A stretch of 64,000 nt of DNA, taken from the NCBI GenBank assembly GCA_000004985.1, contig GG738906.1; one strand, given 5' to 3'. The notes beneath the pieces are model-generated. The model was not told where the DNA came from. It worked only from the letters and a program-made list of their open reading frames with translations, and searched no databases. The position numbers and the translations under genes were made by a program. This document shows, piece by piece, positions 22,727 to 52,640 of this stretch; position 1 is the first letter of the stretch; the number at the start of each line of letters is the position of its first letter. The DNA is from Naegleria gruberi (lineage: Eukaryota).

Positions 22727-22965
22727 AAATATGCTTGTTCACAACTTTAATTTATTATTACTATGTGTTCTTTGAAATAATATTTGCTATCAGAGAAATA
22801 TAAGATTTAGTTCAGTATTATTTGGAATAATTTATGAAGATTTTTAGATAGAATTACTGTTTTATTTAATAATGTTATTATTATTAGATTAATAATTATC
22901 ATAATAAATTTTGAAATTGAAATTTAAAAAAATAAAATCCAACATCAATACTCTTCCTCTATTAA

Positions 22966-26125: not shown

Positions 26126-26237
26126 TTTTTTAAAGATTTTTTCAACAACTATTTCATAAACTCCGTGCTTTCATCACACAATTTAATAAATTAATAATTT
26201 TATAATAAATTAATTTATTTAAAGGAAATAATAACAA

Positions 26238-27644
26238 TTATAAATGATAAATAAAATCAGAGAGAGGATTAATTAATGTAGATTCTTCATAAAATGAAAT
26301 GGAATTTGCTCGAAGTTTTGGGTTGATTGTAAAAAGGGAAAAGCATTTGGAAAGATTATATTCCAGTTCCTTATTGGTTTTTACAATATCACTCTTTCCA
26401 ATACCTATAGAAAAGTTAAAACCATGACATTTCTTACTTGTAATTCTTTTTAAAAATTGTTCTAAATTATCAAATATTACTCTGTCATTAAACGTAATAC
26501 CACTATTATTTGATCTATCGTTAGAGGTTATTGGAACAGAAAGTATTCCCAAATCATATCTATTGGTTATTTTTAATATATCTACATGGAGTGAATATGG
26601 TGATGAATTTAGTATTAGTTTTTCTAATTCATAGAGAAGGTGGTGAGATATGGAAAATCTAGTCTTGTCCTTTTCAATAAATGATGAAATAATATTTAGA
26701 TCTGAAAGTAGTATATTTTGCAAAATGTATTGTGCAAATATATCCAAATTGATAATATCTTGATTTTCTTCATAAGGATTAGAATTCATAAGAAAATTGG
26801 AATTATTATTTAAATATTCACAACAATCGATAACTTGTTTTACACCGAGTAGGTAGGAAGGATTTCTTTTCAAATTTTGGTCATCCAATCTGATAAATCC
26901 CTGTCTTTGATGTAAATCTAGAATTTTTTCATTTTCTGAACTCCATACGGGAAGAATGCTTGAACGATTCATTCCCATTATTGACAATGTTACAATATTC
27001 GCAATATTATTTTCAGAGCCATTATTATCATTTGAAAAATTCCAAGATGATTGATTCTTTGCGTGAATATATGAAACATGAGCTTTCTTTACAATATTAT
27101 ACAAATCTTCAGTTTCCATAAATGAAAAATCAACAATAAATACATATTTTTCTACAGACGACAATCTAGTCTTATATGAAGCTGCCAATAAATCTTCTAA
27201 TTGTAATGTCAATGAGTGAGCTGGCTGAGGTTTTTTTTGGAAGGATATCGAGGAAGGAGAAGTAGCATTTCTAGGAGATGAATCTGTTGTTCTACTTCTT
27301 GGTGATGTAGAAGAAGAAGTTGAAACTCCAGATGGAAGGGGAACAAGATTTATACTAGTATTCTGTTGGGAATTTACGGTGGTAGAATTTCCAAGAATGT
27401 GCCGCTTGAAAGAGAGTCTCCTTGGTTTTGTATCAACAGTTTGTTGTTGTTGATCAGTTGATACTGTAGGTTCCGAATTGTTTGTTTGTTTAATTTCAAA
27501 ACTAGCATCATACTTGGTGGATGTATTTTCTTCCGAAATGATTGTGGTGTTGGTAGGGTTGATTACAAATCCTCCTGATGGTGGTTGACCAATATGAGGA
27601 TTGTCTAAGTGTTTGGAAGATTTTCTCTTGAAGAGCGATTTCAT
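26238..27644 (-). CDS. Hypothetical protein, 468 aa, single exon. Ser/Thr-rich N-terminal third, then a globular region.
   Basis: Long ORF with the window-typical codon usage. No motif I can name with confidence. Confidence 0.5.
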   Translation of the reverse strand: MKSLFKRKSSKHLDNPHIGQPPSGGFVINPTNTTIISEENTSTKYDASFEIKQTNNSEPTVSTDQQQQTVDTKPRRLSFKRHILGNSTTVNSQQNTSINLVPLPSGVSTSSSTSPRSRTTDSSPRNATSPSSISFQKKPQPAHSLTLQLEDLLAASYKTRLSSVEKYVFIVDFSFMETEDLYNIVKKAHVSYIHAKNQSSWNFSNDNNGSENNIANIVTLSIMGMNRSSILPVWSSENEKILDLHQRQGFIRLDDQNLKRNPSYLLGVKQVIDCCEYLNNNSNFLMNSNPYEENQDIINLDIFAQYILQNILLSDLNIISSFIEKDKTRFSISHHLLYELEKLILNSSPYSLHVDILKITNRYDLGILSVPITSNDRSNNSGITFNDRVIFDNLEQFLKRITSKKCHGFNFSIGIGKSDIVKTNKELEYNLSKCFSLFTINPKLRANSISFYEESTLINPLSDFIYHL

Positions 27645-30955: not shown

Positions 30956-33110
30956 ATGGCCGAAACACAAGAAATACCACTAGAAATGATGAGTTATTGT
31001 CAATGTACATGCTGATCAGCATGGTCAACAAGAGGGATTTCACTTTAGAGAGGTTCCAAAAGTATTATTGGAATGGAAAAATTTGAGCTATGAAGTAAAA
31101 GTTAAAAAGTCACTTCCACCCTCTAAAACTACAACATCCAAAGAAAGAATAACCTTTCATTTAAAAAATTTATTTAAAAAAGTCCCAAAAACTATTCTTC
31201 ATTCAATGAGTGGATTTGTAAAGCCAGGTGAGGTATTAGCAATTATGGGACCATCTGGAGCTGTAAGTTTTTTTGGAAGGTTGACATTTTAATGACATTT
31301 GTTCGTTAAGGGAAAAACCTCACTCCTCAACATTCTCTCTCAAAGAGTTAAAGCTTCTGGAGGTGAAATTTTAGCCAATGGACAACATGTTGGAAAGGCA
31401 TTCAAAAGCATTAGTGCATTCGTTCAACAGGATGATGTACTTTTAGGTAATTTAACTGTAAGTGTCTAATTTTAATTATTGGAAAACAATAATGAAATAA
31501 GGTGAGAGAAACTTTGAGATATACAGCAATGCTTCGTTTAGGCAACGTTTCAATGAAGGAGAGAATGAAAAGAGTTGACAGTTTAATCCAAGAACTTGGT
31601 CTTTCTCGAGTTGCTGATACTCTGGTAGGTAGTCCAGGTTTGGTAAAGGGAATTTCTGGAGGTGAAAGAAAACGTCTGTGTATTGCTATTGAACTTCTTA
31701 CACAACCATCCGTATTATTTTTGGATGAGGTGAGAATAATTTAATAATTTCATTGAACGAGACATTAACAAAACCAGCCAACAACAGGCCTCGATGCAAA
31801 AACAAGTTTAAGTGTGATTAATACCATTAACAAACTAGCCCAGAATGGTAGAACAGTCGTATTGACTATTCATCAACCTAGATCAGATATTTTCCAATCA
31901 TTTGATAGATTGCTCCTATTAGCAAGAGGAAAAATTGCTTATTTTGGTAATGCTAAAAGTGTCATACCATACTTTTTAAAGCTTGGATATGATTGTCCAG
32001 AAGCATTCAACCCAGCTGACTTTTTTATGGATCTTGTAACAGAAAATCCTGCTCTAGTAGAAGAGGGAAAAACAACAAAAGTAGAACAAAATCAAAGAAT
32101 TGAAACAATACTTTCAAACTATTCTGAAAACTTTGAAGAGTTGGCCTCTGCAAAAAGAGATGGGGTCAATATGGAACACTTGACAAGAAAAAACAAGTAT
32201 ACATCGGGTTGGTTTTCTCAATTTTTTGTGGTTTTGATGAGATCTTTTCTCAATACCATAAGAAATAAGGCTGTTACAATGGCTAGATTATTTCAGCAGG
32301 TTTCAACTGCTTTCTTACTTGGCTTAATTTATTTGAGGCTGAAAAATGATCAGACTGGTGTTCAAGATAGGCTTGGTGTATTATTCTTTTCTGTTTCCAA
32401 TATGTTTTTTGGAAGTTTATCGAGCTCCCTAAATGTATTACTTGGAGACAAGCCTGTGTTTAATAGAGAGAGAGGTGCTAAACTGTATAGAGTTAGTAGT
32501 TGGTATGTTGCAAAGGTTATTGCAGACATCCCAAGTGTACTGTTTTTCCCTCTTCTTTTTGGTTGCATCTTATATTTTTGGATAGGGCTTAATGGAAGTA
32601 TTGATAGATTCTTAATGTTTCTATTGATTCAAGCGATTTTAGGCTTGACCGGGCAAGGTCTCGGTATTGCTATAGCGAGCATTTCACCAAACGCTTCTGT
32701 GGCATTTTCAATTATGCCAGTAATCAGTACCATTTTAATGTTATTTGGAGGGTTCTACTTGAATTTAGACAATGTACCAGTGTACTTTGTTTGGATTTAC
32801 TGGTAAGTTATCGAAATAGAACACATTTCATCCTTATCTATTCTAATTATTATTAACAAACAGGACTAGTATCTTTCATTTTGCATTTGAGGCATTTTGT
32901 ATTAATGAATTTACGTCCTCAACATTTGAATGCACTTCCTCAAGCTATTGTCCATTTCCAAATGGCGCAGCCGTGTTAGAAAATTTGGCAATGGATTCTT
33001 CAATGTCATCAACTTGGATTAACATTGGTTTATCATGTGCCCTTATTCTTGTTTATCATATTTTTGCTTATTTATGTTTGAGATTTTTCTCTAAACCGAG
33101 AGGTGGCTAA
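30956..33110 (+). CDS. ABCG-family (White/ABCG2-like) half-transporter, NBD then TMD. Exons: a short uncertain 5' exon (ATG at 30956); body starting at 31033, 31035 or 31053 and running to 31262; 31311..31457; 31502..31729; 31778..32802; 32864..33110. Introns: 48 nt (31263..31310), 44 nt (31458..31501), 48 nt (31730..31777), 61 nt (32803..32863).
   Basis: LEWKNLSYEV..., Walker A GPSGA|GKTSLLN (split by an intron), Q-loop, ABC signature ISGGERKRL, Walker B LLFLDE|PTTGLDA (split by an intron), H-loop TIHQPRS. Six TM helices follow, and the ABCG-type C-terminal extracellular Cys loop (...NEFTSSTFECTSSSYCPF...) sits after the last intron. The main ORF frame has no ATG (the track's M is a TTG). 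An ATG at 30956 can be spliced in by a 31-49-nt intron, but the exact junction is unresolved. Confidence 0.8.
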
Positions 33111-33167
33111 TTTTTACAATAATTTTAATTTATAGTTTACAAATATTTAATAAATAAGTGGATTCAA

Positions 33168-34340
33168 TTACATATAAAAGTGAGAAAAATCCTCATCGTC
33201 ATCATCTAAATCTCTTGGAACTCGGTGATGGTCTGGATTTGGTTGACCACCTCCTCTACCTTGACCTCCAAAAGGTGCATTAGGATAGATTGGATCAAAT
33301 CTAGCACCTGGAATAAAGCCTGGGTTAGGTCTTCTATTATTATTTGAACCTGGAAAGAATAATGGATTGTTTGGACCAACCTGGCTGCCTCCACCAAATG
33401 GAAAACCAGATCCCCTTCCTCCAAAAGGTTGTGGTAAATGACCCAAACCAGGATACAAATCTTCATCACCAATACGATAAGGTCTACCACCAATAGGTGG
33501 TTGAATATATCCTCCTCTTCTTGGAGGGCCAATTCGTAGTGGATCAAAATCGTCATCATCTTCATCATACATACTTCTACTTGGTGGAATGTATTGTCTT
33601 GGTTGACGATCTTCTAATAGAGATGAGGAAACGTTAGTCGTAGTTGCATTATTGGATGATTGTGTGGATGACATGCTAATTGTTTCAAATCCCTCTTTTG
33701 GAACCAGTTTGTTTTGAATTTGAGTTTTAAATTGATATTCCAAGTCTTGTAAATTCTTAAAAACAGAAATAAAATCAATATTATCGTTACTTTGGTTGAT
33801 AACTTCATTAAACTTTTCTCTGTCAATAAACTCAAAAAGATTATTAAACTCCAACTGATAGACTTGTTCTTCTTCTTGTTGTTTGGCATATTGTGACATG
33901 TTCAAGTTTGAATTCTCATTGATATCAATATTTGGGAAAAGTAAAATGGTTGAAAATACTAATAATTTAGTTTGTCCCATCATTAATACTTTTAGAGTAA
34001 AATTAAATGTTCTTTGTGTGTGTTTGTACTTGAGAGAGAACATTTCCACGTTTGAATCAAAGTTGTTCGGAGGAAGAATTTGTCCCTCTGGTAATTCTAC
34101 ACATTGATCAGTTTCATTCAATCCAACACATCTAAATCCATGTTTTAACATTAAAAAGTGTAATACTAATACAAGCCAAGTTTGAGGTTTTGTTTTTTTT
34201 AATTTGTTTTGTAATTCTATATTATTAGTTAGTTGTGGATCGGTTAAATATTCTAAAATATTTGATCGGATCAAAGAACTAGATGATGAAGAATTGTCTT
34301 CTCCGCTGCTGCTGGCGTGGTTATCTGATGATGAAGACAT
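33168..34340 (-). CDS. PSMF1: Proteasome inhibitor PI31-like protein, 390 aa, single exon.
   Basis: N-terminal FP-type domain. C-terminal Pro/Gly-rich region with ...DDDFDPLRIGPPRRGGYIQPP...PGARFDPIYPNAPFGG... (compare PI31 ...GARFDPFGP...). A C-terminal hydrophobic-Tyr-X ending (FYM) resembles the HbYX proteasome-docking motif. Confidence 0.6.
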   Translation of the reverse strand: MSSSSDNHASSSGEDNSSSSSSLIRSNILEYLTDPQLTNNIELQNKLKKTKPQTWLVLVLHFLMLKHGFRCVGLNETDQCVELPEGQILPPNNFDSNVEMFSLKYKHTQRTFNFTLKVLMMGQTKLLVFSTILLFPNIDINENSNLNMSQYAKQQEEEQVYQLEFNNLFEFIDREKFNEVINQSNDNIDFISVFKNLQDLEYQFKTQIQNKLVPKEGFETISMSSTQSSNNATTTNVSSSLLEDRQPRQYIPPSRSMYDEDDDDFDPLRIGPPRRGGYIQPPIGGRPYRIGDEDLYPGLGHLPQPFGGRGSGFPFGGGSQVGPNNPLFFPGSNNNRRPNPGFIPGARFDPIYPNAPFGGQGRGGGQPNPDHHRVPRDLDDDDEDFSHFYM

Positions 34341-36803: not shown

Positions 36804-39800
36804 TTATAAATCTTCATTTAGATATGGATTCACAACGCTCTTTTTTTCATTCTTTTTAAAGGTCTCTGTTTGTTTAAATCTCCAATAGACTCCCATCAAC
36901 TGTTCGGTTGTTTCTACTTTGAGAATTGTGATAAGGTCTTCCAGTTCTTGTGCAGTTATAGCCTCATCTTGCTCCTTTCTAATGTGAAACATTCTCATCG
37001 TTTTCCTGCTGATAGAGAGAGGAAAAGGACTGTACTTTTTAAGGAATCTTTTGTAAATCTTCCTCACATGTTGGGATCTCTCAAACATACTGTGATGGAA
37101 ATTACCTTCAAAGGAATAAATGTCAATCAATTGACGATATAAATATACTAGTGGAAGGGTAAATTCTTTCATTGCATAAAATTCAAACAATGGACCCAAT
37201 ACCGGATCATTTACAACATCTAATAATTCACTGTCAGAAGTATTTTGTGTTTCAGATCCTCTAGTGCAACAAAATGTGTGTTTTCTAGCTGTCATACAAG
37301 CTACAAATCCTCCATAAACCAAGAGAATTAATAGCTTAACCATAAAAAGTAAAATAATTGGAGCAATTTCAAGCATGTGTATGTGAGCTTGTCTGCTGTA
37401 GAGTTGGAAAGCAAGAGAACCCTCATTAAAAGTATTGCTATACAGATTTGGATACATTACGTTCATTACATCATAACCTTCTGCTAGAACAAGTAAACTA
37501 GCCATGAACATATAAGCTATCCATTCAATTTTGAAAAGGAAAACATCTCCATTAAAAGTACCTTCAAATTTCAAAAAGTTGTCAGTCTTTACATCATTGA
37601 AATTTAACATTTTCTTCATGAATATTTCCATAAAAATAATAATAGAGAAGCTAACTATTACACTCAATGTAATTAAGCAAGCCCTTATTAAACTAAATAC
37701 TGTAAATACTAATTTAAAGTTAAGAACTGAAACTGAAGCCAGTACTAGTAATATGATATATGTAACCAGTTGGGCAGCATAAAGAGTCAAACATGGCATA
37801 ACTAAATAGGATCTGGAAGTGAATTTAACATATCTACGAATTGAATATTTTTCATCTTTCTCTTGATACTTTTTCATCAAGAATTGGAATCTTTCCTTGT
37901 GGTAGTATTGCCAAATATTCAACATGTAGAGAACTAGCATGGCACAATATAATGGATCGATAACAGTTCTCAAGGCTCCATCTATTGTATCCATGAAAGG
38001 TATTTCAACACCTGTCAAGAAAATATTCATAATCATTCCATCTCTAGTCAAATTGATAAGTGCTTCGAGTATCAGGACTAGAATTCCAAAAAATGGAATA
38101 AAACCTCTAAACTTTAGCGAAATATTGTGTGGTGTCCTTATACTAAGTAGAAAAATAGCTTGTCCAACAGAGAAAATTAAAATTAAAATACAGGATGTAA
38201 TATCTCCCCAAACCTTATTGGTAAAATCTTGGATAAGTTCAACATCTGATGTGTTTGCCTTCAATACAGCAAAAAGGGTGGTATGATTACAAGAGCAATA
38301 AATTCTATTTAGTCCAGGATTGGAATCATCAGTAATCAAACTATCCTTTGGCTTGGAATTACCGAGGAATGAATAAGATGCCACAGTGGTGCATCCCTCC
38401 TTTGACCATTCTTCTGTAGTTTCATTCCAAAAATGGCATCCACCCCCCATCCACAAGTAAGTAGGTAGGTAGACACTTTGATCAGCAAAGAATACCATCT
38501 CTATTGGTGACTTTAAATTTCTCAATTTCAATGATTGTTGATTGTAGAGTAATTCTACACTTATCATTACGTTTCCAAGTATTTTGGAATTGCCTTCTGT
38601 ATTTTTAAAAGTTACAATCTTGAACCCAACAAATTGATCTGTAATGTTCAAAGGAAGTGGAGATATGATGGATGCATCCAACGAGTTGGCCAATGTGCTT
38701 CTTTCTGTATTAGAATGGATAATCTCATCAGAATTCAACTCAATATCAGAAATGAATAGACTTTGTTGTCTAATTTCAGGTGGAAGTTGGATAAGAAGTA
38801 AATTATTGTTCACTTTCCATTCTCTAGTGTCGTTGGAGTAATCAACAGAAACAGAGGCCCCTTCTCCAAATCCAGCACCAATCAGACTACTCAACAAATC
38901 TCTCTTGTAGCTTATTTCTACGTTATTGTTTGTAATGGTTACAGCAGTTGAAGGCGCCGACTCCTCTAAAAGTCTAATAGACAACTGGTGAATCCATTTT
39001 TGGCAAAAACCAGCAAGAACTTGTGATTTAACAATTATTGTGTTGGCGTTTGCTGTTGACAGTAACGAGTCAAGAATAGTAAGGAAAGAATTAGAATATG
39101 TAGAGAATAGAGATGAAAATTCTACTTTAGGATTGTTGACTTCACTAGTTGGTCTCATATCTATGACATCTATTGTTCTGGTGATGAATAAATTTCGTTC
39201 CTTCAAAAAATTTACAAGCAATGGGTGTAAAAGAGAGTCAACTATGAGCGATATAGATCTAGATGATAGATGTGATGGTTTTTTGGTGAGAGAGGAAATT
39301 AGTTGAATTAAATTAATATCCATTCTGAATAGATCAAATAATGAAAGTGCAAAAGTGTTAGAACTATTAAGTGTTTTCAGTTGTTCTCGAGCCGAGATGG
39401 CTGCACTAGCTATTTGTTCTCTAATTATTCCTTCTTCATCAGAATTATTAAAGGCTGCATACTCATTTAGAGTAGTGCACAATTTGTCCAAGTCTAGATA
39501 AATATCTTGAATAATTTTTGGTTCGAAAACTGTTACATTATTTTTCTTCATTAAATCTGTGATGTTTGGCAAAATGTCAATGACTTGCTGTTGAATGTTT
39601 TGAATTTTGGATTTGGTCGCCTTGAGATAATTGTGATCAGTGCTAGTGTTGTTTAGTTTGATATTTCTAGTTCCAATCCAATATCTAAAGTTGTATGATT
39701 CCTTTGATGGATCATTAATTTGTAAAAATATATGGATATCAACTTGATTTGTGTGAGAGTAGGGTAACCAAGTTGTTAACTTGTTCATATGTGTGGAAGT

Positions 39801-41546
39801 GGTCAAGAGCTTCATTGTATCACCTTCAATAGAGTAATAAATCTCATATATTGCAGAGACGCTGGAAGAAGTAATACCAGGAAATTCAATAACAAATTTG
39901 TCTAATAATGGCCTATTAAATCCATCAAGTAATGGATAAATAGAAATTGAACTGCTATCTATAATACTATCTTGTTGCTTTGAAGCAACCTTTCTCCTAA
40001 ATGTTGAATTAACAATGTATATTTGATTGATAATAGCCTTAACGGAGAACTCATAAATATTAGGACTGGAAGAGTATGCCTTCTCATTGCTCAAAAGAGT
40101 TCTAGGTTCTAAATAGAGTACTGAATTAGAGGAAGTCTTTACAATGGTTGGTGTTTCTTGTTGATCTTCACGTCCTAAATAACTCACAGTCCACTCCCAT
40201 TTCAATGAGGTTACACCAGAAAGTAAAACTCCACCCGGAAAAATTTCACCACTCAATACTATTGCCTTTGTTGGATCCATGAATGTGGTGTCGATACTTG
40301 GGAAAATTCTAACTGCCCAATATTCATTGGCATTTAATGTTCGAAGTATGATAAAAGTGGTGTCAGATCTTGAACCAACACTATAATCAAGGCAAATCAC
40401 ATAGGTATTAAAATATTCAAGATTTTCTGTAGGAATATTATAATTTGATTCAAATGTGTTTACAGGTGTTTCAAATGTACAAGGTAGTAATACTGATGAG
40501 GAAATGTCAGATTTCAATTGAGATTTTCCACTCAGCTTGTAGGAATGGCCTTTTATGTAAAAGCATGACCAAATAAAAGACTCTTTAACAAAATCCACTA
40601 GTGGTAAGTTTTCAGGATCATAACTTGTTGAAAAAAGTTGTAAGGACCCATCTGATTGAATTATACTACCAAAATCAGATTCTTTTGGATATAAATTGGA
40701 ACGAGTATTATAAGAGTAAATTGGTAAATACTCTTCATACAATCCTCCATTGATTTGAGCTATAACATTGGATTTTGGCAATCTTTCTACACTAAATGAG
40801 AAGGAAATATACTCCATAGTAATGTTGCTGTTAGAGGAGTTGTATTCACCAATAAAATCAAAATTATAAGGGATGGAAGGCAGTAAATCATTAGTATTGA
40901 CTTTAAGTAAAAGTCCTCGAGTAATAGAATGCGTTAAAGGGTTGGATGTTAATAAACTCAATAAAGAATTGCCATTGCTAATCTTCCAAAAGTAGTTTCG
41001 TTCATTATTTGAAAATCCTGTAGCAGAAGCATTAAAAATTATCTCCTCATGGCTTGAAACTGAAACTAATTGTTGAGAGTGTATTGCCACATTGTTCATG
41101 TAAATTGTCAAATTGTTCAAGCTTGACTGTTCGTTTGCGTTCACAAAAAATCTGCCAGTTGTCACTGTATCCTCCAAAGCATGATAGTAATGGTGGTAAA
41201 TATTGGAAATGTTTTTTTGTTGAACACCAAAAGATTTGAAAAAGTAAGAATTCACTTGTATATCATGAATGTAAGAACTTTTAACTGCGTTTGATACACA
41301 AAGCATGGTTGATAATATCAAGACCAAATGAATCCAAGAAACAATCATGTGCCATATGCCCTTTCCGAATTGCATACTACTATGTATTCTTTTAGGAATT
41401 GATGAAGACATTTTTAAATTCGTAATATTTAATAGTGATTTCTTGTTAAATAATTCTTGTTTAGTCATTTGTTGTTGATGATGTGAGTTCGGAGGACTTT
41501 TTACATAGTAATTTTTTTGCAAATCTTTGGGTGTTTGGTTTTGCAT
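36804..41546 (-). CDS. Adhesion-GPCR-like receptor, 1580 aa, single exon: signal peptide, about 1000-aa N-glycan-rich ectodomain, canonical GAIN/GPS motif, 7 TM helices, cytoplasmic tail.
   Basis: Signal peptide ...IWHMIVSWIHLVLILSTMLCVSNA. GGGCHFWNETTEEWSKEGC...(35 aa)...IYCSCNHTTLFAVL is encoded at about 38262..38460, immediately followed by seven hydrophobic helices (ITSCILILIFSVGQAIFLLSI ... IAPIILLFMVKLLILLVYGGFVACM). The start codon could be the first ATG (41546) or a downstream Met preceding the signal peptide. Confidence 0.75.
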   Translation of the reverse strand: MQNQTPKDLQKNYYVKSPPNSHHQQQMTKQELFNKKSLLNITNLKMSSSIPKRIHSSMQFGKGIWHMIVSWIHLVLILSTMLCVSNAVKSSYIHDIQVNSYFFKSFGVQQKNISNIYHHYYHALEDTVTTGRFFVNANEQSSLNNLTIYMNNVAIHSQQLVSVSSHEEIIFNASATGFSNNERNYFWKISNGNSLLSLLTSNPLTHSITRGLLLKVNTNDLLPSIPYNFDFIGEYNSSNSNITMEYISFSFSVERLPKSNVIAQINGGLYEEYLPIYSYNTRSNLYPKESDFGSIIQSDGSLQLFSTSYDPENLPLVDFVKESFIWSCFYIKGHSYKLSGKSQLKSDISSSVLLPCTFETPVNTFESNYNIPTENLEYFNTYVICLDYSVGSRSDTTFIILRTLNANEYWAVRIFPSIDTTFMDPTKAIVLSGEIFPGGVLLSGVTSLKWEWTVSYLGREDQQETPTIVKTSSNSVLYLEPRTLLSNEKAYSSSPNIYEFSVKAIINQIYIVNSTFRRKVASKQQDSIIDSSSISIYPLLDGFNRPLLDKFVIEFPGITSSSVSAIYEIYYSIEGDTMKLLTTSTHMNKLTTWLPYSHTNQVDIHIFLQINDPSKESYNFRYWIGTRNIKLNNTSTDHNYLKATKSKIQNIQQQVIDILPNITDLMKKNNVTVFEPKIIQDIYLDLDKLCTTLNEYAAFNNSDEEGIIREQIASAAISAREQLKTLNSSNTFALSLFDLFRMDINLIQLISSLTKKPSHLSSRSISLIVDSLLHPLLVNFLKERNLFITRTIDVIDMRPTSEVNNPKVEFSSLFSTYSNSFLTILDSLLSTANANTIIVKSQVLAGFCQKWIHQLSIRLLEESAPSTAVTITNNNVEISYKRDLLSSLIGAGFGEGASVSVDYSNDTREWKVNNNLLLIQLPPEIRQQSLFISDIELNSDEIIHSNTERSTLANSLDASIISPLPLNITDQFVGFKIVTFKNTEGNSKILGNVMISVELLYNQQSLKLRNLKSPIEMVFFADQSVYLPTYLWMGGGCHFWNETTEEWSKEGCTTVASYSFLGNSKPKDSLITDDSNPGLNRIYCSCNHTTLFAVLKANTSDVELIQDFTNKVWGDITSCILILIFSVGQAIFLLSIRTPHNISLKFRGFIPFFGILVLILEALINLTRDGMIMNIFLTGVEIPFMDTIDGALRTVIDPLYCAMLVLYMLNIWQYYHKERFQFLMKKYQEKDEKYSIRRYVKFTSRSYLVMPCLTLYAAQLVTYIILLVLASVSVLNFKLVFTVFSLIRACLITLSVIVSFSIIIFMEIFMKKMLNFNDVKTDNFLKFEGTFNGDVFLFKIEWIAYMFMASLLVLAEGYDVMNVMYPNLYSNTFNEGSLAFQLYSRQAHIHMLEIAPIILLFMVKLLILLVYGGFVACMTARKHTFCCTRGSETQNTSDSELLDVVNDPVLGPLFEFYAMKEFTLPLVYLYRQLIDIYSFEGNFHHSMFERSQHVRKIYKRFLKKYSPFPLSISRKTMRMFHIRKEQDEAITAQELEDLITILKVETTEQLMGVYWRFKQTETFKKNEKKSVVNPYLNEDL

Positions 41547-43268: not shown

Positions 43269-43532
43269 ATGAATCCACCAACAGAACAAATCGAATCTGT
43301 ATTGCAACCACATCAAATGGTGTATCCTTACAGAAAACGAGCAACACAAACCATCAACACATCTACCATCAACAACAAACAACAAACATCTCCTGAGGAA
43401 GACATTGTTCCTCCCTTATTAATGAATTTCATACCACCTCCTTGTCCAGTTGATAATATTACAAATCCTTCCTTAGCAGCTTTGAAAAGAAATTGTTATT
43501 GGAGAAGGAGATTGTTCTTGCACAATGGATAA
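43269..43532 (+). CDS. Short ORF (87 aa) overlapping the next ORF in the +1 frame. It may be the N-terminal part of the downstream gene (frameshift or sequence error) or an independent small ORF.
   Basis: ATG with an A-rich context at 43269. The downstream frame opens 45 nt before this ORF's stop. No splice-site pair reconciles the two frames (all candidate junctions create stop codons). Confidence 0.25.
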   Translation: MNPPTEQIESVLQPHQMVYPYRKRATQTINTSTINNKQQTSPEEDIVPPLLMNFIPPPCPVDNITNPSLAALKRNCYWRRRLFLHNG

Positions 43533-44562
43533 AGAAGGAACAACTTATACTGTTCGAACAGTAGATAAGCATGAACGATCGTTAAACAGTAGTCATGATA
43601 ACGCAACTAGTATAACTCGAAGCTCAATTCCGCCCCAAACAACCGCCACCACACAACCACAAATTCACTCTTCAACAACAACATCACCAACAATTTCTCC
43701 AACCTTTGCAACCCTTTATCGAAGTGCCTCCTCATATCGTGCGCATGTTTCAGGCACACCTCAATACGTACAAACATCACCTGCCCAAGTGGTTAGGTCT
43801 TCATCATTTGATAGCCATTTGCCAATTTTCTCACACATTCCCTCCACCAATATCACACATGCAAACACTTTATCCTCTCCTTCTCTGTCACCTAATCATG
43901 CTTATTTTCTTAGCTCAACACCAACCCAATTTCTCTCCACTAGTATTCCAACAATTCAGTATTCATCATCACCAAATTATTGCCCCATTCCAAATACAAC
44001 CTTCTCTCATGTTCCTCTTTTTGTTTCTACACAGCCTGTGACTGTAGTTCCCTCAAATATTCAAAAACCAAACATTTCAAAGAAAAAGGTAAAGACACCT
44101 TCTTCCCCAGTGGCTTCATCTTCATCATCTTCCAGTCAATCATCGCAACATTTACAAATAGTAAGCCAGGAGCATCCTTCTGCTCAAGAAAGAAAACGAT
44201 CAATCTCACCAGCATTTGGAGAGCAAGTCAAGTTAACCCCCCCTGAAAAGAAAACAAAAACCATCGAAATTCCAAAGTCTACACAAGCTTTGAAAATTCC
44301 AAGAGCAGAAATAGCAGAAGCAAAACAACATTCTAAAGACTCACTAAAGGGGAAAAAAACCATTGTGGCTAGATTTCTTTGCCCAAACAATTGCGAAATT
44401 CAAGGCACCCCAATTGTTTCACTAGATTCCTCATCTCACAGTGTAATTATTCAAGGTGTCAGTTTAGTTTATAATCCTCCAGAGTTTGCTCAGTTGGATA
44501 AAACAGTGGTAGTGAAAGGAGAGAACGGATCTCTAGAAGTAAGATTGCCACTTTTAGAGTAG
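43525..44562 (+). CDS. Hypothetical Ser/Thr/Pro-rich protein (345 aa) with a conserved-looking C-terminal globular segment (...TIVARFLCPNNCEIQGTPIVSLDSSSHSVIIQGVSLVYNPPEFAQLDKTVVVKGENGSLEVRLPLLE).
   Basis: Long ORF; low-complexity N-terminal two-thirds. Family not identified. Confidence 0.5.
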   Translation: MDKEGTTYTVRTVDKHERSLNSSHDNATSITRSSIPPQTTATTQPQIHSSTTTSPTISPTFATLYRSASSYRAHVSGTPQYVQTSPAQVVRSSSFDSHLPIFSHIPSTNITHANTLSSPSLSPNHAYFLSSTPTQFLSTSIPTIQYSSSPNYCPIPNTTFSHVPLFVSTQPVTVVPSNIQKPNISKKKVKTPSSPVASSSSSSSQSSQHLQIVSQEHPSAQERKRSISPAFGEQVKLTPPEKKTKTIEIPKSTQALKIPRAEIAEAKQHSKDSLKGKKTIVARFLCPNNCEIQGTPIVSLDSSSHSVIIQGVSLVYNPPEFAQLDKTVVVKGENGSLEVRLPLLE

Positions 44563-44603: not shown

Positions 44604-46897
44604 TTATTGAGATAAAGATCCTCTTACAATTTCTACCAAAGATGTCAATAATTGGAAAACAACAGTAGTTTGAGGATTGATTAAAATCTTAAACAGAGCA
44701 TTTCTTAAATTTTGGCTATCAGCTTGCTCATTATCTGAGGCAATGTCATTAACATCAACTACCTTATTAATAAGTTCCATTTGTTGTGCTAGGAAAGAAG
44801 AAATTAGAGGATGAGATTTGATAGGTTCTTCCATTAATTTTGCCAATAAGTCTAATACCTTCTTTTCATTCTCATCAATGACTTGTTCATTCTTAATAAG
44901 TTCACCCTTTTCGTAGAGTTGAGAAAACTTTCTACCCTGTGCATCTGTGTAGTGAGTTTCCCCTTCAATTTGTCCGTCAACCCAATATCCCTCAAGAGAT
45001 TCTTTACTGTCCAAAAGAACAAATCTTCCTCTCCCATCAAATTTACCTCTTTTCCAATAACCAACATATGTGTATCCAGATGATGAAAAAGTTCCATAAC
45101 CATCAGAGAAATCACCAAGCCATTCACCTTCATAAACATCACCATTAGGATAGGATTGTTTGCCAAAACCTTCTCTCTTATCATTGTTCCATTCCCCATC
45201 ATAATGGGACTGATTTGCAGCAAATTTCATTTTACCCCTTCCAGATTTGATTGAATTTATAAAGTGGCCTTCGTAGACATCTCCTGAGGCATATTTATAA
45301 ATACCTTTACCTGTTATGGAATCTTTTGAGAATTCACCTTCGTATTTGGATCCATCTGTAAACACCATCTTACCTGCTCCATCTCTCATATCATCAATAA
45401 AATAGCCTTCATATACACCTCCATCGTTGTACATTAAAATACCAAAACCGTGCTTTTGTCCATTTGTGTTTGTGTCACCTTTATAAAATGGTTGGTTGCA
45501 ATCCATATTAAGATTATCACCAAGTCCACTACCAATCGAAATATTATGTGGTAATGTGGCTATATCAATTGAACTTTCAGATTCAACCGATGTTATGGAA
45601 GACAGATTATTCTCTACTTCTAAAACCATCTTAACAGACACTTGCCTTTTGTGATACACTCGGCTTAATGTAGCAGTATTATTAACAACAGTAGGGGTTG
45701 TACTGGCACCAATACTATTCAAATCTTCATCCTCAGTTTGATCATTGCATGTTTGAGAGGTTGCTGTATTTTCATCATTTGTCTGAATGTCTGAAACACC
45801 ATCCTCAAATATTTGAGGAGCATTGACTATTAATGACTTGATGACGTTGGTTGCATTGGAAATATCTCTAATAGTTAGCATGGGATCTTGATCTTTCAGA
45901 TATAATATATTAGGTTGAATTACAATAGCAATATTTTCAGGACTCATTAAATTCTAAAATTCAAACAAATTGAAATAACAATAAATAAAATATTAACAAA
46001 CATTAATAATAAAATAAAAATTAGTTCAATATTTTTGAAATTATTACATACCACTTGTTGTTTTTTCGAAACAGTATTTAAAAATAGGCAAAGTTTTTTT
46101 AGCAGTACATAATTTGCTCTGGGCAAAAGACCACAAATTTGTTGTAATAATTGACATTTACGACTAGTTTCCAATTCCTCAAGTTCTGAAGGTGATAAAT
46201 TATTTGTATCATTATTTGATATTGAAGTGGTATTAATCATTTTTGAAGTTGCAAGAAATGATTCGTATAGTTTGTTTGTTAATAGTGGTTCTCTCAGTTT
46301 CCTCAAATAAACCTTAATGAGAGAGGCTGCTAAATGTACATCTGCATATTCATTAAAATCAACTGTAGCCATTTTAGCTCCACCACTTTTAAATAATTCA
46401 TCAATTTCTTTCATTACCTTTTCTTCTCTACTCTTCGATGTAGAATGTCTGAAAATACCTTGAGTTTCCAAGCCATGTTTCTCCAAATAGTCCATGGCAT
46501 GAAATAGGAATTGGGGAATGTGTTCAGGTGAATTGGAAGGAAATTCATGGCCCCAAATGGTATCCTGATTCAAAATTTTAGAAAGTCCACCATTGATACC
46601 AGTACTACTACTACCCTTTGAATTTTCACCACCATTCAATATTTGTGATGATGAGGATGTTGAAGAGGAACGAGTGGAATTCTTTTTTCTTTTACTTCTT
46701 GTGGTGGTGGTGGAACCGTTATTATTACTACTACATGAGGATTCATCATCATCATGTTGCTGCTGTTGCTTGTCATGTTCATTAATCATTCCTTGTAACT
46801 GATCGTAGAGTGCAGTGGATTTTTGACCGTCAGTGTTTTTGAAGAGTGCCACAGATGCTCTGGGCTCTAATTTGATACGGGAAAATAGTCTTCTCAT
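44604..46897 (-). CDS. RhoGAP-domain protein fused to C-terminal MORN repeats (about 730 aa). Exons 46052..46897 and 44604..45953; 98-nt intron 45954..46051 (GTATGT...TTTTAG).
   Basis: ORF 45947..46897 carries a RhoGAP domain (…GIFRHSTSKSREEKVMKEIDE…, LLPRANYVLLKKLCLFLNTVSKK) and ends in intron read-through. A GTATGT donor follows KQQV. The acceptor ttttag|AATTTAATG continues as NLMSPENIAIVIQPNIL (RhoGAP motif N.M...NLA.VFGP.LL) into ORF 44604..45947, which holds at least 7 MORN repeats (YEGYFIDDMRDGAGKMVFTDGSKYEGEF...). Confidence 0.7.
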
Positions 46898-47397: not shown

Positions 47398-48410
47398 TTA
47401 ATTTAGTCTAACTAATAACTTACAGTCATTCAAAATACTTTCAAGATCACATCTATTGCTTATTAAAGCTATAAGGAATTTGAGAAATGATTTACAAGTG
47501 TTAAGATCGGGAAAATGTTGTTTTGCATGCTTTCTCTTTTTCAATGGAGGTTGGATTTGAGCTTGATTGTTATTTTGAATGAAAATTGTTACAGACCTCC
47601 ACAATAACTGCTTTTTCAATGTTTGAACAGTTTCGATCAATGATGAGTACACTAAGTTTTCCTCCGATATTGCATCGAAAATTGTTTCAATGAGTGTTTC
47701 TAATCTTCTTCTTGAAATAGGAGAGAAAATTGTTTCAGCTGTAAATCTGGCCTCAATACACAAGGCTAAATATTCTAATTTGATTTGAGAAGTTTTACAA
47801 TTTTCAACAATACTTGTTACAATTTTCAATATACTAGAATCAGCTTGTTCCATTATTTCCTCTGATGATTTAAAGTATGAATCAAATACAAGTCTCATCA
47901 CAAAATCCTTATCAAAATCAGGATTAATGAAATTTTCCAAAACCAACTCTGATAACAATTTAATGTCGAATTGAGGAAAATAGAAAGGAAGATTTAAAAT
48001 ATGTACAAGAAGAGTACATGTAATCTTTCCCATATTTTCAAATAATACAACATGATCATATCTGCAATAAAATCGAATTAGGTTCTCTATTGTAAAATAA
48101 ATAAATACCTAAATTCTTGAGGAGGATGTCTAGTAATTTCAACAAGATACATCAAAATTTTGATTATATAATCATTGATATTCAAGTCTTTTCTGTTCGA
48201 ATAGTTGCACAACATTTCAAATACAGCCTCATCTTGTATTCCTTTCAATAAGAAAGTGATAATTTCCTCCAAAGAATCATAATTAATGTTTCCATTTTCA
48301 ATCATATCTTTTAATATTGAATGTATTGTTTTAAAACATTGATTCATTTCAGTGAACTTATTTGCATCCCTAGCTTGTAAAATTTCCAAAGCCTTTTTGA
48401 TTGACTCCAT
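47398..48410 (-). CDS. Hypothetical alpha-helical protein (about 329 aa). Exons 48109..48410 and 47398..48061; 47-nt intron 48062..48108 (GTATTT...TTGCAG).
   Basis: ORF 48087..48410 ends ...HPPQEF then the donor AG|GTATTT (phase 2). The acceptor restores the frame of ORF 47398..48033 (R-YDHVVLFENMGKITCTLL...). Confidence 0.55.
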
Positions 48411-49594: not shown

Positions 49595-50821
49595 TTAAGT
49601 TTTCTTATATTTTAGCCAAGTTAAAGCTGCAACAAGAATCAGACAACCAGCCATCCACATTTTTTGCTTTTCCTTCTCATATTCAAAATAGTGTATTGTA
49701 TGTTGAATAATTTCTAAATATTCCCACAAGTGATATTGATTTCGAATTGGAAATTTTGTTGACCTTATTTCTATCTTGGCTGGATTTTCATTGTAAAGTA
49801 TTGATTCATCTTTCTTCCAATCTAATAAACAAGCACTTGTATGATAATCATATGGATTCAACTCTATCAAAATTAAATCATCCTGGTTCAACATGACATC
49901 AAATATATATGACTCGTAATACTTGGACAGTATTGATACTTTTTCATTAAAAAAATTTACAATTTTTCTTGAAGATAATTCAATGTCAATATCTTGATGG
50001 AATACATGCTGATCATATTGAGAAATTGCAACTAATTTACCTTTAAAAACAAAGCATCTGAACTCATTTTTGAAATCAACATTTTCACACCATTCTCTCA
50101 ATATGATATGAGAATGGGAATAAGTGGGATCCTTGTGATAGTAATTATTTGTCAAAATCCATTCAAAACCTCTCCTAATATGCAAATTGTTTAAAAGTTA
50201 AAAAATAAGTAAATACCTTATTCTCTTACTCAGCAAAATTAAAATCACTCCATACATTAGATTATTTTCTGATATTCTCATTAAATTAGTATATGACTTT
50301 CTTATTATTTTAAATATTTCATTTTGATTATTGTAAAATTGATCCAGCTCATTTTCAGTGTGGGAATGTTTTTGAAAATTGTTAAGAAAATTGATGTATT
50401 CCTCAATCGTTGATAATTGATTTCCCAATGTGTTTACCATATAATCTCTATTCCTTCCTAAATTGAAACTCTCAATACTGTCTTTTGGTGAATTTGATGA
50501 TGTTCTCAAAAATACTCCACTACTAGATGGATGTGTTGAAAAATAATTTTCCAATTCTTGTAGTATGTATTTAACAGTTGATATGCAACAAGTGAATAAA
50601 TCTTTTAGATCATCAAAAGAATCCATTTTTATGCTAATCCTCCTTTTAAATTCACTCATGGTTTTTTTATCTGTCATAAATTCGTATAATTGTGTAATTT
50701 GGTCAATTGTTAACGGAATAAAAAAAGTAGGAAATGTAACGTTGGAACAATGTTGATACCAACATTCCACATCATAGGATTTCCAAAATTTAATTTCTTC
50801 GGCTGAACGGCATTGAATCAT
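49595..50821 (-). CDS. CDC123: CDC123 (cell division cycle protein 123 / D123 family, eIF2 assembly factor). Exons 50217..50821 and 49595..50174 with a 42-nt intron (50175..50216, GTATTT...ATATTAG). An alternative junction uses a GTAAGA donor at 50229 with a 60-nt intron.
   Basis: D123 family blocks: VFLRTSSNSPKDS, REW..., EFRCFVFKGKLVAISQYD, ILIELNPYDYHTSACLLDWKKD. The two ORFs 50198..50821 and 49595..50185 join in frame by either junction, giving ...LLSKRIR|RGFEWIL or ...ILLLS|FEWIL. Confidence 0.7.
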
Positions 50822-50846: not shown

Positions 50847-52415
50847 TTAAAACGTTTCATCATCAGATGAATCAAGCAAATCATCAAGATTAGGTAAAAT
50901 GCTATTCCCTCCTTGTTCTTGTACAAGTGTTGAAATGAAGGTTTGTAAAATATCTCTAAAGATGTGTTCGTTTTCAGGACTTACAACAAGCTGATTCATG
51001 GCCATTCCTAGACCCATATTTTCATTCTCATTGTTGAGACTGTTGGAGTGGTATAAATTTAGAATTTGATCACCATGTTGTCTCATTACTCTCTCTAAAA
51101 TACTCCTTTCAAAGCTATCATCTATTTCAGTATCCATTTTAATATTGACCTTTTGTGTTGATGTTTCCCAGAAGAATAATCTTGAACTTTCAATAGAGTT
51201 GGTAAGTAATCTGTTGTCATTAATGTTGAGAATTAAATGTACAACACCTTCATGGCCATTCAATGTGCGGAGAAGTTTTCCAGAATCCTTTTCATAAATG
51301 TAAACCTTATTATCCTCACTTCCTGTCAGTACATATTTTTCATTATCAAAGAAACAGCTACTGACATTATAACTCTTACATTTGTGATCTTGATACTTTT
51401 GAATAACACTAGAGTCCAAATTACTAATTTGATCAGATGTACCTGTAGGTAATTTTCTAACATCGAACAACCGTATTACACTATCTCTACCACTAGAAAG
51501 AAGGTGATGGTCATCTTTGGTAATTTGTAATTGATTCATTTTTCCTTCATGAGCTTTGATTTTGAAAATTGGTTTGACAGTATTGGAACCTGTATTAGAG
51601 TTGAAAACTAAATTTCTAGAGTCGTACAGTCTAATATATCCATCACGAGATCCTGTATAGAACATGCTAGGTGAATGATTTGTACAAAGTATGGAATTAA
51701 TAGTATTTAATCCACCTAGAATATTTTGAGGGTCATTTTGAATTTGGAACAAAATTTGGTGTTCCTTATTAATATCATATCCGAATATTCTACCTGAAAT
51801 ACAACCAGAAAGAAGAGTCGAATTATCACAAGATGTATCCAAACACCGAATCCAATCTTTGTGATCCTTTAGTGTTTGAATATTATTTTCTCCGTGCCAA
51901 ACTTTGATTGTTTTGTCCAAAGATGATGTGTAGAAAAATTCGTCATCAATTGCATGACTAGTTGATGTTTTTCTATTATCATTTTCAAGTCTATGCTTGT
52001 TGTTATCCATAAAATGTATTTGAGTGACAATTTCTCTGTGTTGTGTTTTAAATTGTTTAGTTTTTTGTCCATCTTCATTCAATAAAAGAAGTTCTGATTT
52101 TCCATTCGCAACTGCAATAACATTCTTTCTTTCATTCATAGAGACAGAGAAACAACAATCCTCTCCTCCTCCATTACCATTTCCCTTTCCGATTGTAGCA
52201 ACTTGTGCTGTTTCTAGTTTATCTATTAAAGCAACCTTTTTAATACGTTCTCTCATAGATTGTTGAACGCTATTTGTTGATCCACGATTTCTTGAAGAAC
52301 TTGAGAGGAATGCTCTATTGTTTACATATTTAAATAAACTTTTTCTTGTCTCTTCAAAATATTTGTCATCATGTGCCATCATTTTTTTAATAATAATTAA
52401 ATTTGATTGGTACAA
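50847..52415 (-). CDS. WD40-repeat protein, 522 aa, single exon. Its stop is 25 nt upstream of the CDC123 start on the same strand.
   Basis: Multiple WD-like repeats (...SSLDKTIKVWH, ...GSRDGYIRLYD, ...SGRDSVIRLFDVR, ...GSEDNKVYIYE) and an acidic C-terminus (DDLLDSSDDETF). Subfamily (DCAF-like?) not determined. Confidence 0.7.
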   Translation of the reverse strand: MYQSNLIIIKKMMAHDDKYFEETRKSLFKYVNNRAFLSSSSRNRGSTNSVQQSMRERIKKVALIDKLETAQVATIGKGNGNGGGEDCCFSVSMNERKNVIAVANGKSELLLLNEDGQKTKQFKTQHREIVTQIHFMDNNKHRLENDNRKTSTSHAIDDEFFYTSSLDKTIKVWHGENNIQTLKDHKDWIRCLDTSCDNSTLLSGCISGRIFGYDINKEHQILFQIQNDPQNILGGLNTINSILCTNHSPSMFYTGSRDGYIRLYDSRNLVFNSNTGSNTVKPIFKIKAHEGKMNQLQITKDDHHLLSSGRDSVIRLFDVRKLPTGTSDQISNLDSSVIQKYQDHKCKSYNVSSCFFDNEKYVLTGSEDNKVYIYEKDSGKLLRTLNGHEGVVHLILNINDNRLLTNSIESSRLFFWETSTQKVNIKMDTEIDDSFERSILERVMRQHGDQILNLYHSNSLNNENENMGLGMAMNQLVVSPENEHIFRDILQTFISTLVQEQGGNSILPNLDDLLDSSDDETF

Positions 52416-52640
52416 ATTATTGATAGTTAATATTATATTAATATTACACTATTGTTATCAATCACATAAAATTCTATTGAAACAATACTAGTCAATAAAC
52501 AAATACAATTATTAAAAATTAAAGCATCCGCCATGTCGCCGATAATAAATAATAGACCTTCCTTTCCTATCACAAATAAATAGAAGAAATGTGAAGCAGG
52601 AGATCCATTCAACAACACATTTCAAAAAAAATCAAATATC

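Follow-up and report, generated by a model that had tools for sequence, protein, structure and literature searches.

Proteins with a RhoGAP domain are typically multidomain. In p50RhoGAP (also ARHGAP1 or Cdc42GAP), the GAP domain is paired with an N-terminal Sec14/BCH lipid-binding domain. The MORN1 proteins consist solely of MORN repeats (PMC7725318), and MORN counts among the domains traditionally linked to Dbl RhoGEFs, those of Acanthamoeba and Thecamonas included (PMC5499878). In this study, we analysed a stretch of 64,000 nucleotides (nt) from Naegleria gruberi (assembly GCA_000004985.1, contig GG738906.1; the whole stretch is referred to as the window), in which two adjacent open reading frames (ORFs) of the minus strand code for a RhoGAP domain and for an array of MORN repeats. 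Our results confirm that these two ORFs are the two exons of one minus-strand RhoGAP-MORN gene. We estimate at about 85% the probability that this single two-exon gene encodes a cytosolic protein of 731 residues comprising a basic N-terminus, a disordered region, the RhoGAP domain, a linker, eight to nine MORN repeats and a four-helix tail.

Two exons of one gene

Both ORFs are intact in the ORF listing and lie where the first-pass annotation of the window had placed them, at 45947..46897 (316 residues) and 44604..45947 (447 residues) of the minus strand. Exon 1 covers 46052..46897 (846 nt, 282 codons) and starts with the ATG at 46897. Exon 2 covers 44604..45953 (1350 nt) and comprises 449 codons and a TAA stop codon at 44604..44606. 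Between them lies a phase 0 spliceosomal intron of 98 nt (45954..46051), of the GTATGT...TTTTAG type. Read on the minus strand, exon 1 ends in ...AAACAACAAGTG, the intron opens with GTATGTAATAA and closes with GAATTTTAG, and exon 2 begins with AATTTAATGAGTCCT. The conserved sequence of exon 1 stops at ...LNTVSKKQQV, the last codon being the GTG at 46054..46052, directly before the donor. The AT-rich intron ends at 45954, where the frame restarts with AAT TTA ATG AGT CCT (N-L-M-S-P). Stop codons are found in two of the three intron frames, and the guanine-cytosine (GC) content is 12% in the intron and 35% in both exons. Stretches of 60 nt with a GC content of 12% or lower form six segments in the window, one of which (45946..46051) nearly coincides with the intron. 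The other segments (22826..22950, 26168..26263, 33108..33179, 50280..50340 and 52378..52448) may be introns or intergenic AT tracts. An alternative in-frame donor, GTGGTA, would define an intron of 101 nt. It was discarded because it costs one residue relative to all orthologues, whereas the 98-nt GTATGT intron preserves the spacing.

After splicing, the frame is continuous from exon 1 to exon 2 and the product has 731 residues. The RhoGAP domain runs across the junction: its coding region (45801..46567, residues ~111-333) is split by the intron, the first ~170 residues of the domain being encoded by exon 1 and its end by exon 2. In the spliced protein, the Pfam family PF00620 scores 114.7 bits (cut-off 24.5) over residues 128-300, which covers profile positions 1-145 of 148. 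This score represents a gain of 21.7 bits over the 93.0 bits obtained before splicing. Moreover, the phmmer alignment to p50RhoGAP is gap-free across the junction (FLNTVSKKQQVNLMSPENIAIVIQPNILYLKD versus FLVQISAHSDQNKMTNTNLAVVFGPNLLWAKD). Since the equivalent of Asn194 of p50RhoGAP (N289) sits in exon 2, exon 1 alone would code for a truncated GAP domain. The initial suggestion that the second ORF carries the continuation of the RhoGAP domain is thus well founded, as exon 2 is required for both the RhoGAP fold and the catalytically relevant Asn194 equivalent. Of note, conservation extends upstream of the internal ATG at 45947 (NLMSPEN), up to the acceptor AG. This ATG encodes M285, the invariant methionine of the RhoGAP N-x-M motif, and hence is not a start codon. 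That it might be the true start of a separate MORN gene is very improbable.

The intron is also present in relatives. A phase 0 intron was found at the identical codon boundary, directly preceding NLMSPEN, in the orthologue of Willaertia magna (locus L001; 42 nt, GTAAGT...TTTTAG), in an orthologue from an N. fowleri sample (L005; 166 nt) and in an environmental relative (L007; 42 nt). The introns of these loci are unrelated in sequence and the flanking exons are conserved. In addition, RhoGAP and MORN are encoded by one unbroken ORF in N. fowleri FDP41_004539 (762 residues, L002), P0233 (1196 residues, L010) and P0097 (834 residues, L011). Altogether, these data substantiate two proposals of the first-pass annotation. 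The first, a single gene joined by removal of 98 nt, agrees with an intron position common to three other lineages and with the deposited N. gruberi protein, which is reproduced on that removal. The second, the presence of RhoGAP and MORN in one protein, agrees with the three homologues that carry both domains in a single uninterrupted ORF. Because the deposited protein is reproduced in this way, the 98-nt intron is already in the reference annotation. Indeed, the public annotations of N. gruberi, N. lovaniensis, N. fowleri and Willaertia already contain the gene, its intron and its two domains.

The peptides obtained by reading through the intron differ between species, those of other species being VSHRPIRQ, VSF and VSFCT, each followed by a stop codon. 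We considered that intron retention could turn the read-through peptide into a membrane anchor, and dropped this idea as the peptide is not conserved in any relative. A 316-residue protein from an ENA contig of another sample (P0090) consists of the unspliced exon 1 plus the read-through, and differs from the window by a single residue (L166S, IDELF to IDESF). Public metagenome or assembly data therefore include a nearly identical N. gruberi strain.

Domains, tail and family

Among solved proteins, the GAP domain has its best sequence match in p50RhoGAP (1rgp, 1tx4, 1grn, 1ow3), with an expectation value (E) of 7e-21. The arginine finger, R150 of a GIFR motif (codon AGA at 46448..46450, exon 1), aligns to Arg85 of p50RhoGAP in the 1rgp/1ow3 numbering. 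K195, also encoded by exon 1, aligns to Lys122. N289 (codon AAT at 45933..45935, exon 2) was equated with Asn194 through the gap-free second alignment block, in which query position 139 corresponds to position 148 of the 1ow3 chain. All three residues are invariant in the seven family members (7/7). The most distant of these members share only 24% identity with the window protein, and invariance of the Arg, Lys and Asn at such a distance is the pattern expected from selection on catalysis. In an AlphaFold model built on the seven-sequence family alignment, region 111-333 is all-helical, with a predicted local distance difference test (pLDDT) score of 80-93. Foldseek matched it in the PDB to p50RhoGAP, chimaerin, ARHGAP20 and Myo9b, with a template modelling score (TMt) of 0.72-0.86 (0.76-0.86 to 1tx4, 2osa, 3msx and 5m6x). 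Judging from the invariant catalytic residues and from a fold that is modelled confidently and matches solved RhoGAP domains, the protein is likely an active GAP.

The MORN array (44880..45488, residues 438-640) comprises seven canonical Y-x-G-x-[WF]...G-x-G units and one or two degenerate ones. The Pfam family PF02493 scores 95.4 bits (cut-off 22.5), and the array is modelled as 18 beta-strands with pLDDT values above 90. Its Foldseek matches in the PDB include MORN1 of Toxoplasma gondii, Trypanosoma brucei and Plasmodium falciparum (TMt 0.85-0.91, 30-36% identity), as well as axonemal MORN proteins of the radial spoke and central pair, and junctophilins. The segment has a net charge of -7. 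It is followed by a conserved C-terminal tail (44607..44879, residues 641-731) that escaped the first-pass annotation. Four helices are modelled in this tail (643-655, 664-680, 690-707 and 712-730), with block-mean pLDDT values of ~54-83 and a disordered dip at 677-691. The tail is conserved in 7/7 family members, with the motif L..AL....NP.T..VF.LL..L and charged residues in all of them, and it has no Pfam family match.

The remaining regions are disordered and modelled with low confidence. Residues 1-110 start with a conserved basic motif, MRRLFSRIKLEPRASVALFK, whose beginning is shared with Willaertia and N. lovaniensis (M[KR][KR]LFS[RK]); the first 30 residues have a net charge of +5. Residues 334-434 form an acidic linker between the GAP and MORN parts. 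Exon 1 also holds an N. gruberi-specific low-complexity insert (residues ~45-105). The possibility that this insert is an unrecognised intron was dropped, as its GC content is exon-like (35-42%) and the deposited model retains it. No transmembrane-like segment was found in the 731-residue protein, the maximum Kyte-Doolittle mean over 19 residues being 1.25.

An exhaustive search of 1.84 billion representative proteins, complemented by a cluster look-up, was dominated by MORN-only proteins. Only a few clusters also carry a GAP domain, and the representative of the N. gruberi cluster is the unspliced 316-residue ORF. Two forms can be distinguished in the resulting family. The short form, with eight to nine MORN repeats and the intron, is found in N. 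gruberi, N. lovaniensis (XP_044543684.1, 703 residues, 60% identity) and Willaertia magna (KAL9657289.1 / ABK040_011509, 610 residues, 51% identity). These orthologues share with the N. gruberi protein the domain order, the N-terminal motif, the tail and an array of eight to nine repeats. They differ from it by the absence of the ~60-residue Ser/Thr/Asn-rich insert that precedes the N. gruberi GAP domain and, in Willaertia, by a much shorter GAP-MORN linker. The long form has roughly twice as many repeats and comprises N. fowleri FDP41_004539 (XP_044561353.1; 762 residues, L002 6001..8289), P0193 (756 residues), P0097 (834 residues, L011 1924..4428) and P0233 (1196 residues, L010, GCA_037189345.1, 3472..7062). 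Long forms are 24-31% identical to the N. gruberi protein and keep the order RhoGAP, MORN and helical tail. They have no intron at this site in the three loci read (P0002, P0097 and P0233), and P0243, a relative of the long-form clade, has its break at a different place.

Common to all members are the arginine finger, a QPN[IL]L motif (GPNLL in most RhoGAPs) and the C-terminal motif L..AL....NP.T..VF.LL. In N. lovaniensis and N. fowleri, the homologues bear the name Rho-GAP domain-containing protein. All members that can be placed are heterolobosean. For the L011 homologue, the adjoining FolD gene has mostly bacterial-type matches and its best named eukaryote is Acrasis kona (64% identity), a weak hint that this locus may be heterolobosean as well. 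In both L010 and L011, a C2-domain gene lies directly upstream in the opposite orientation, and this shared neighbour suggests that the two contigs derive from related organisms. When the seven RhoGAP halves were used as a profile, the matches were limited to generic RhoGAPs and to short ORFs of the exon 1 type; this search did not recover the known full-length members and says little on the spread of the architecture.

The pairing of RhoGAP and MORN is rare. In agreement with the first-pass annotation, which had called it an unusual domain fusion, it occurs in few clusters among the 1.84 billion representatives, no PDB chain among the Foldseek matches listed matched both parts, and our literature searches (RhoGAP with MORN, and the accessions) found no paper describing this architecture. 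In its overall organisation, the protein remains an ordinary multidomain RhoGAP.

Proposed role, alternatives and the deposited annotation

We propose that R150 would insert into the active site of one or more Naegleria Rho/Rac GTPases, speeding GTP hydrolysis and switching them off, a step that follows established RhoGAP biochemistry. Substrates are available, as the N. gruberi genome codes for at least 23 Rho GTPases (PMC8305917), and the species also has many regulators (PMC8305917; PMC5499878; PMC9928731). The rigid MORN beta-sheet and the helical tail may act as a docking or dimerisation module, which would determine the site at which, or the oligomeric state in which, the GAP acts. In this scheme, a protein partner or a cytoskeletal structure would be a likelier target of the MORN array than direct binding to the bilayer. 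Regulation might be exerted through the basic N-terminus and the two long, Ser/Thr-rich disordered linkers. Within this mechanism, the part played by the MORN array is the least secure. We favour docking or dimerisation because MORN1 shows no membrane binding and is dimeric (PMC7725318), and because the MORN segment is net acidic here.

Several points weigh against this picture of a spliced, active and protein-docked GAP. Splicing is argued from comparative and compositional evidence and from a gene model that is itself a prediction. The structural model was derived from only seven sequences, and confidence in the modelled tail is only moderate. Where GPN (FGPNLL) is typical of RhoGAPs, the family has QPN, and its RhoGAP domain holds an insert of ~30 residues. 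Finally, TbMORN1 bound individual phospholipids (PMC7725318).

This last point bears on the mechanism suggested in the first-pass annotation, a membrane-targeted Rho inactivator. The MORN array would bind phosphoinositide membranes directly, and the GAP would thereby be brought to the plasma membrane. MORN repeats are classically seen in this way in junctophilins and plant phosphatidylinositol-4-phosphate 5-kinases (PIP5Ks); junctophilin structures are among the fold matches of the array, and the net charge of the N-terminal 30 residues is also compatible with it. However, structural work on the MORN1 proteins detected no binding of TbMORN1 to membranes or vesicles in vivo or in vitro, and pointed instead to tail-to-tail dimerisation and protein-protein interaction (PMC7725318). 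Hence, the premise that MORN repeats are membrane or phosphoinositide-lipid binders is contested. In addition, the acidic charge of the MORN segment, the protein-bound nature of its best structural matches (MORN1 and the axonemal radial-spoke and central-pair proteins) and the lack of a junctophilin-type transmembrane anchor speak against lipid targeting, which we regard as the less likely reading, yet as a live alternative.

More speculative still is an extension of the docking model. The combination of RhoGAP, MORN and tail could be a heterolobosean invention in which a MORN1-like dimeric rod anchors Rho/Rac inactivation to a fixed cytoskeletal landmark, such as a basal-body or flagellar-root structure or a cortical ring. 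If so, the family would contribute to arresting actin-based crawling, either locally or in the course of the amoeba-to-flagellate transition, and the short and long MORN forms would set a different reach or different partners. We offer this proposal tentatively and consider it unlikely as a whole.

A further alternative is a catalytically silent pseudo-GAP, whose RhoGAP fold would only bind Rho-GTP, in the manner of an effector, on a MORN scaffold. RhoGAP domains without activity have precedents in other proteins, and the family has a Gln for the usual Gly of FGPNLL plus an insertion within the domain. On the other side, the arginine finger and the Lys122 and Asn194 equivalents have not changed even in the most distant members. 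We therefore hold a silent domain to be improbable, and retain an active GAP as the preferred reading.

Two independent genes would comprise a RhoGAP-only protein of 316 residues with a read-through end and a MORN protein of 447 residues starting at the ATG 45947. Besides the integrity of both ORFs, this arrangement finds some echo in databases, where prokaryote-style callers deposited the unspliced 316-residue ORF of the near-identical strain and exon-1-only ORFs from relatives (P0090, P0096, P0241 and P0242). However, the 316-residue product would have neither the counterpart of Asn194 nor the final helices of the RhoGAP fold, and its hydrophobic end is translated T-rich intron that is not conserved. 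The role of M285 in the N-x-M motif, the conservation running upstream to the acceptor, the uninterrupted ORFs of homologues and the conserved intron position all point the same way, and leave two genes with very little probability against the single spliced gene. Finally, the identity of the protein as a PIP5K, the name that RefSeq and UniRef give to XP_002671369.1 / D2VX69, is refuted at the sequence level and can be dismissed: Pfam finds only RhoGAP and MORN in the full 731 residues and no PIP kinase domain at E <= 0.01, the model has no kinase-like region and is disordered apart from the two domains and the ~90-residue helical tail, and the N. lovaniensis and N. fowleri homologues carry the Rho-GAP name.

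The name is one of two flaws in the deposited entry for this locus (RefSeq XP_002671369.1, GenBank EFC38625.1, UniProt D2VX69; N. gruberi NEG-M, 661 residues). In RefSeq and UniProt, the product is called 'phosphatidylinositol-4-phosphate 5-kinase', which is a misfit because RhoGAP and MORN are the only domains detected and a kinase domain is not among them. The name was presumably transferred from plant PIP5Ks, which have N-terminal MORN repeats. The second flaw, a probable error, concerns the C-terminus. The translation of exon 1 is identical to residues 1-282 of XP_002671369.1, which uses the same 98-nt intron and is identical to our model through ...FSQLYEKG (about residue 632). Removing a further 47 nt (44905..44859), together with the 98-nt intron, yields the 661-residue XP_002671369.1 exactly. 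This second RefSeq/JGI "intron" (44859..44905, minus strand) has a weak GTGAAC donor and an exon-like GC content of 30%. It encodes ELIKNEQVIDENEKK, conserved as ELVKNERLIDEKEQR in N. lovaniensis and as ELVKSERIIDENEKK in Willaertia. When it is read through, ~90 more residues align with all family members; when it is removed, the frame shifts and the 99-residue conserved end (ELIKNEQ... onward) is replaced by 29 unrelated residues (IRLIGKINGRTYQ...), for which no homologue was found. The weak donor, the exon-like composition, the conservation of ELIKNEQVIDENEKK and of the downstream frame, and the homologue-less RefSeq tail make the 731-residue product the better model. Comparison with the orthologues thus indicates that the second intron is probably spurious, that 44859..44905 is coding and that the true product has 731 rather than 661 residues. 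The exact 731-residue sequence was absent from the protein collection searched.

The wider significance of these findings is little, since the reference annotation already holds the gene. Nevertheless, the first-pass annotation recovered a real intron and the continuity of a domain from raw sequence. The corrected C-terminus, the corrected product name and the definition of a small heterolobosean RhoGAP-MORN-tail family are useful by-products, as a misleading name and a probably wrong C-terminus in the RefSeq/UniProt entry can spread to other annotations. Groups working on actin dynamics in Naegleria could use the family to address the positioning of Rho signalling in a lineage that is distant from both animals and amoebozoans.

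With regard to the surroundings of the gene, each of its two neighbours has an orthologue flanking the Willaertia gene, which makes the N. gruberi and Willaertia loci syntenic. Upstream, two minus-strand ORFs of 107 and 211 residues (47398..48410) look like one gene with a GTATTT...TTGCAG intron at ~48063..48109. This short GT...AG intron indicates that introns of such a kind are normal in the N. gruberi genome. The 211-residue part has no Pfam match and is orthologous to a 332-residue gene upstream of the Willaertia RhoGAP-MORN gene (E 1e-13). On the other side, a convergent plus-strand gene (43525..44562, 345 residues) ends 41 nt from the RhoGAP-MORN stop codon. Its Ser/Thr/Pro-rich product has no Pfam match, and a C-terminal block of ~75 residues is 49% identical to the Willaertia neighbour (E 4e-23). 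Further away, a minus-strand ORF of 1580 residues (36804..41546) has a weak, partial match to the Pfam GPS family (G-protein-coupled receptor, GPCR, proteolysis site; 27 bits, E 6e-6), and may code for an adhesion-GPCR-like or polycystin-like protein.

Comparison with known systems

Among solved proteins, p50RhoGAP is the closest in sequence to the GAP half of the Naegleria protein. The equivalents of Arg85, Lys122 and Asn194 are kept, and the fold is matched with a TMt of 0.76-0.80. Unlike the Naegleria protein, p50RhoGAP has no C-terminal MORN repeats, and the Naegleria domain differs from it by the ~30-residue insert and by QPN in place of GPN. The structures that match residues 438-640 best are those of MORN1 from Toxoplasma, Trypanosoma and Plasmodium (6t6q, 6t4r and 6t4d) and of axonemal MORN proteins. 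MORN1 has no enzymatic domain, whereas the Naegleria array is preceded by one and has a helical tail after its last repeat. Junctophilins combine MORN repeats with a C-terminal transmembrane anchor, and no transmembrane-like segment accompanies the repeats in the Naegleria protein.

A coupling of MORN repeats to Rho-family regulation is also found in alsin (ALS2/ALS2CL) and in Dbl-type RhoGEFs. ALS2CL and a protein with MORN and RhoGEF were among the MORN matches of a homologue search with the full-length protein. The first-pass annotation had overlooked that MORN is already familiar as a companion of Rho regulators of the Dbl type (PMC5499878). In the 731-residue protein, Pfam detected none of the DH-PH, RCC1 and VPS9 domains of the alsin type. 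The direction of regulation would also be the opposite: a Dbl-type GEF switches Rho on, whereas the Naegleria GAP would switch it off.

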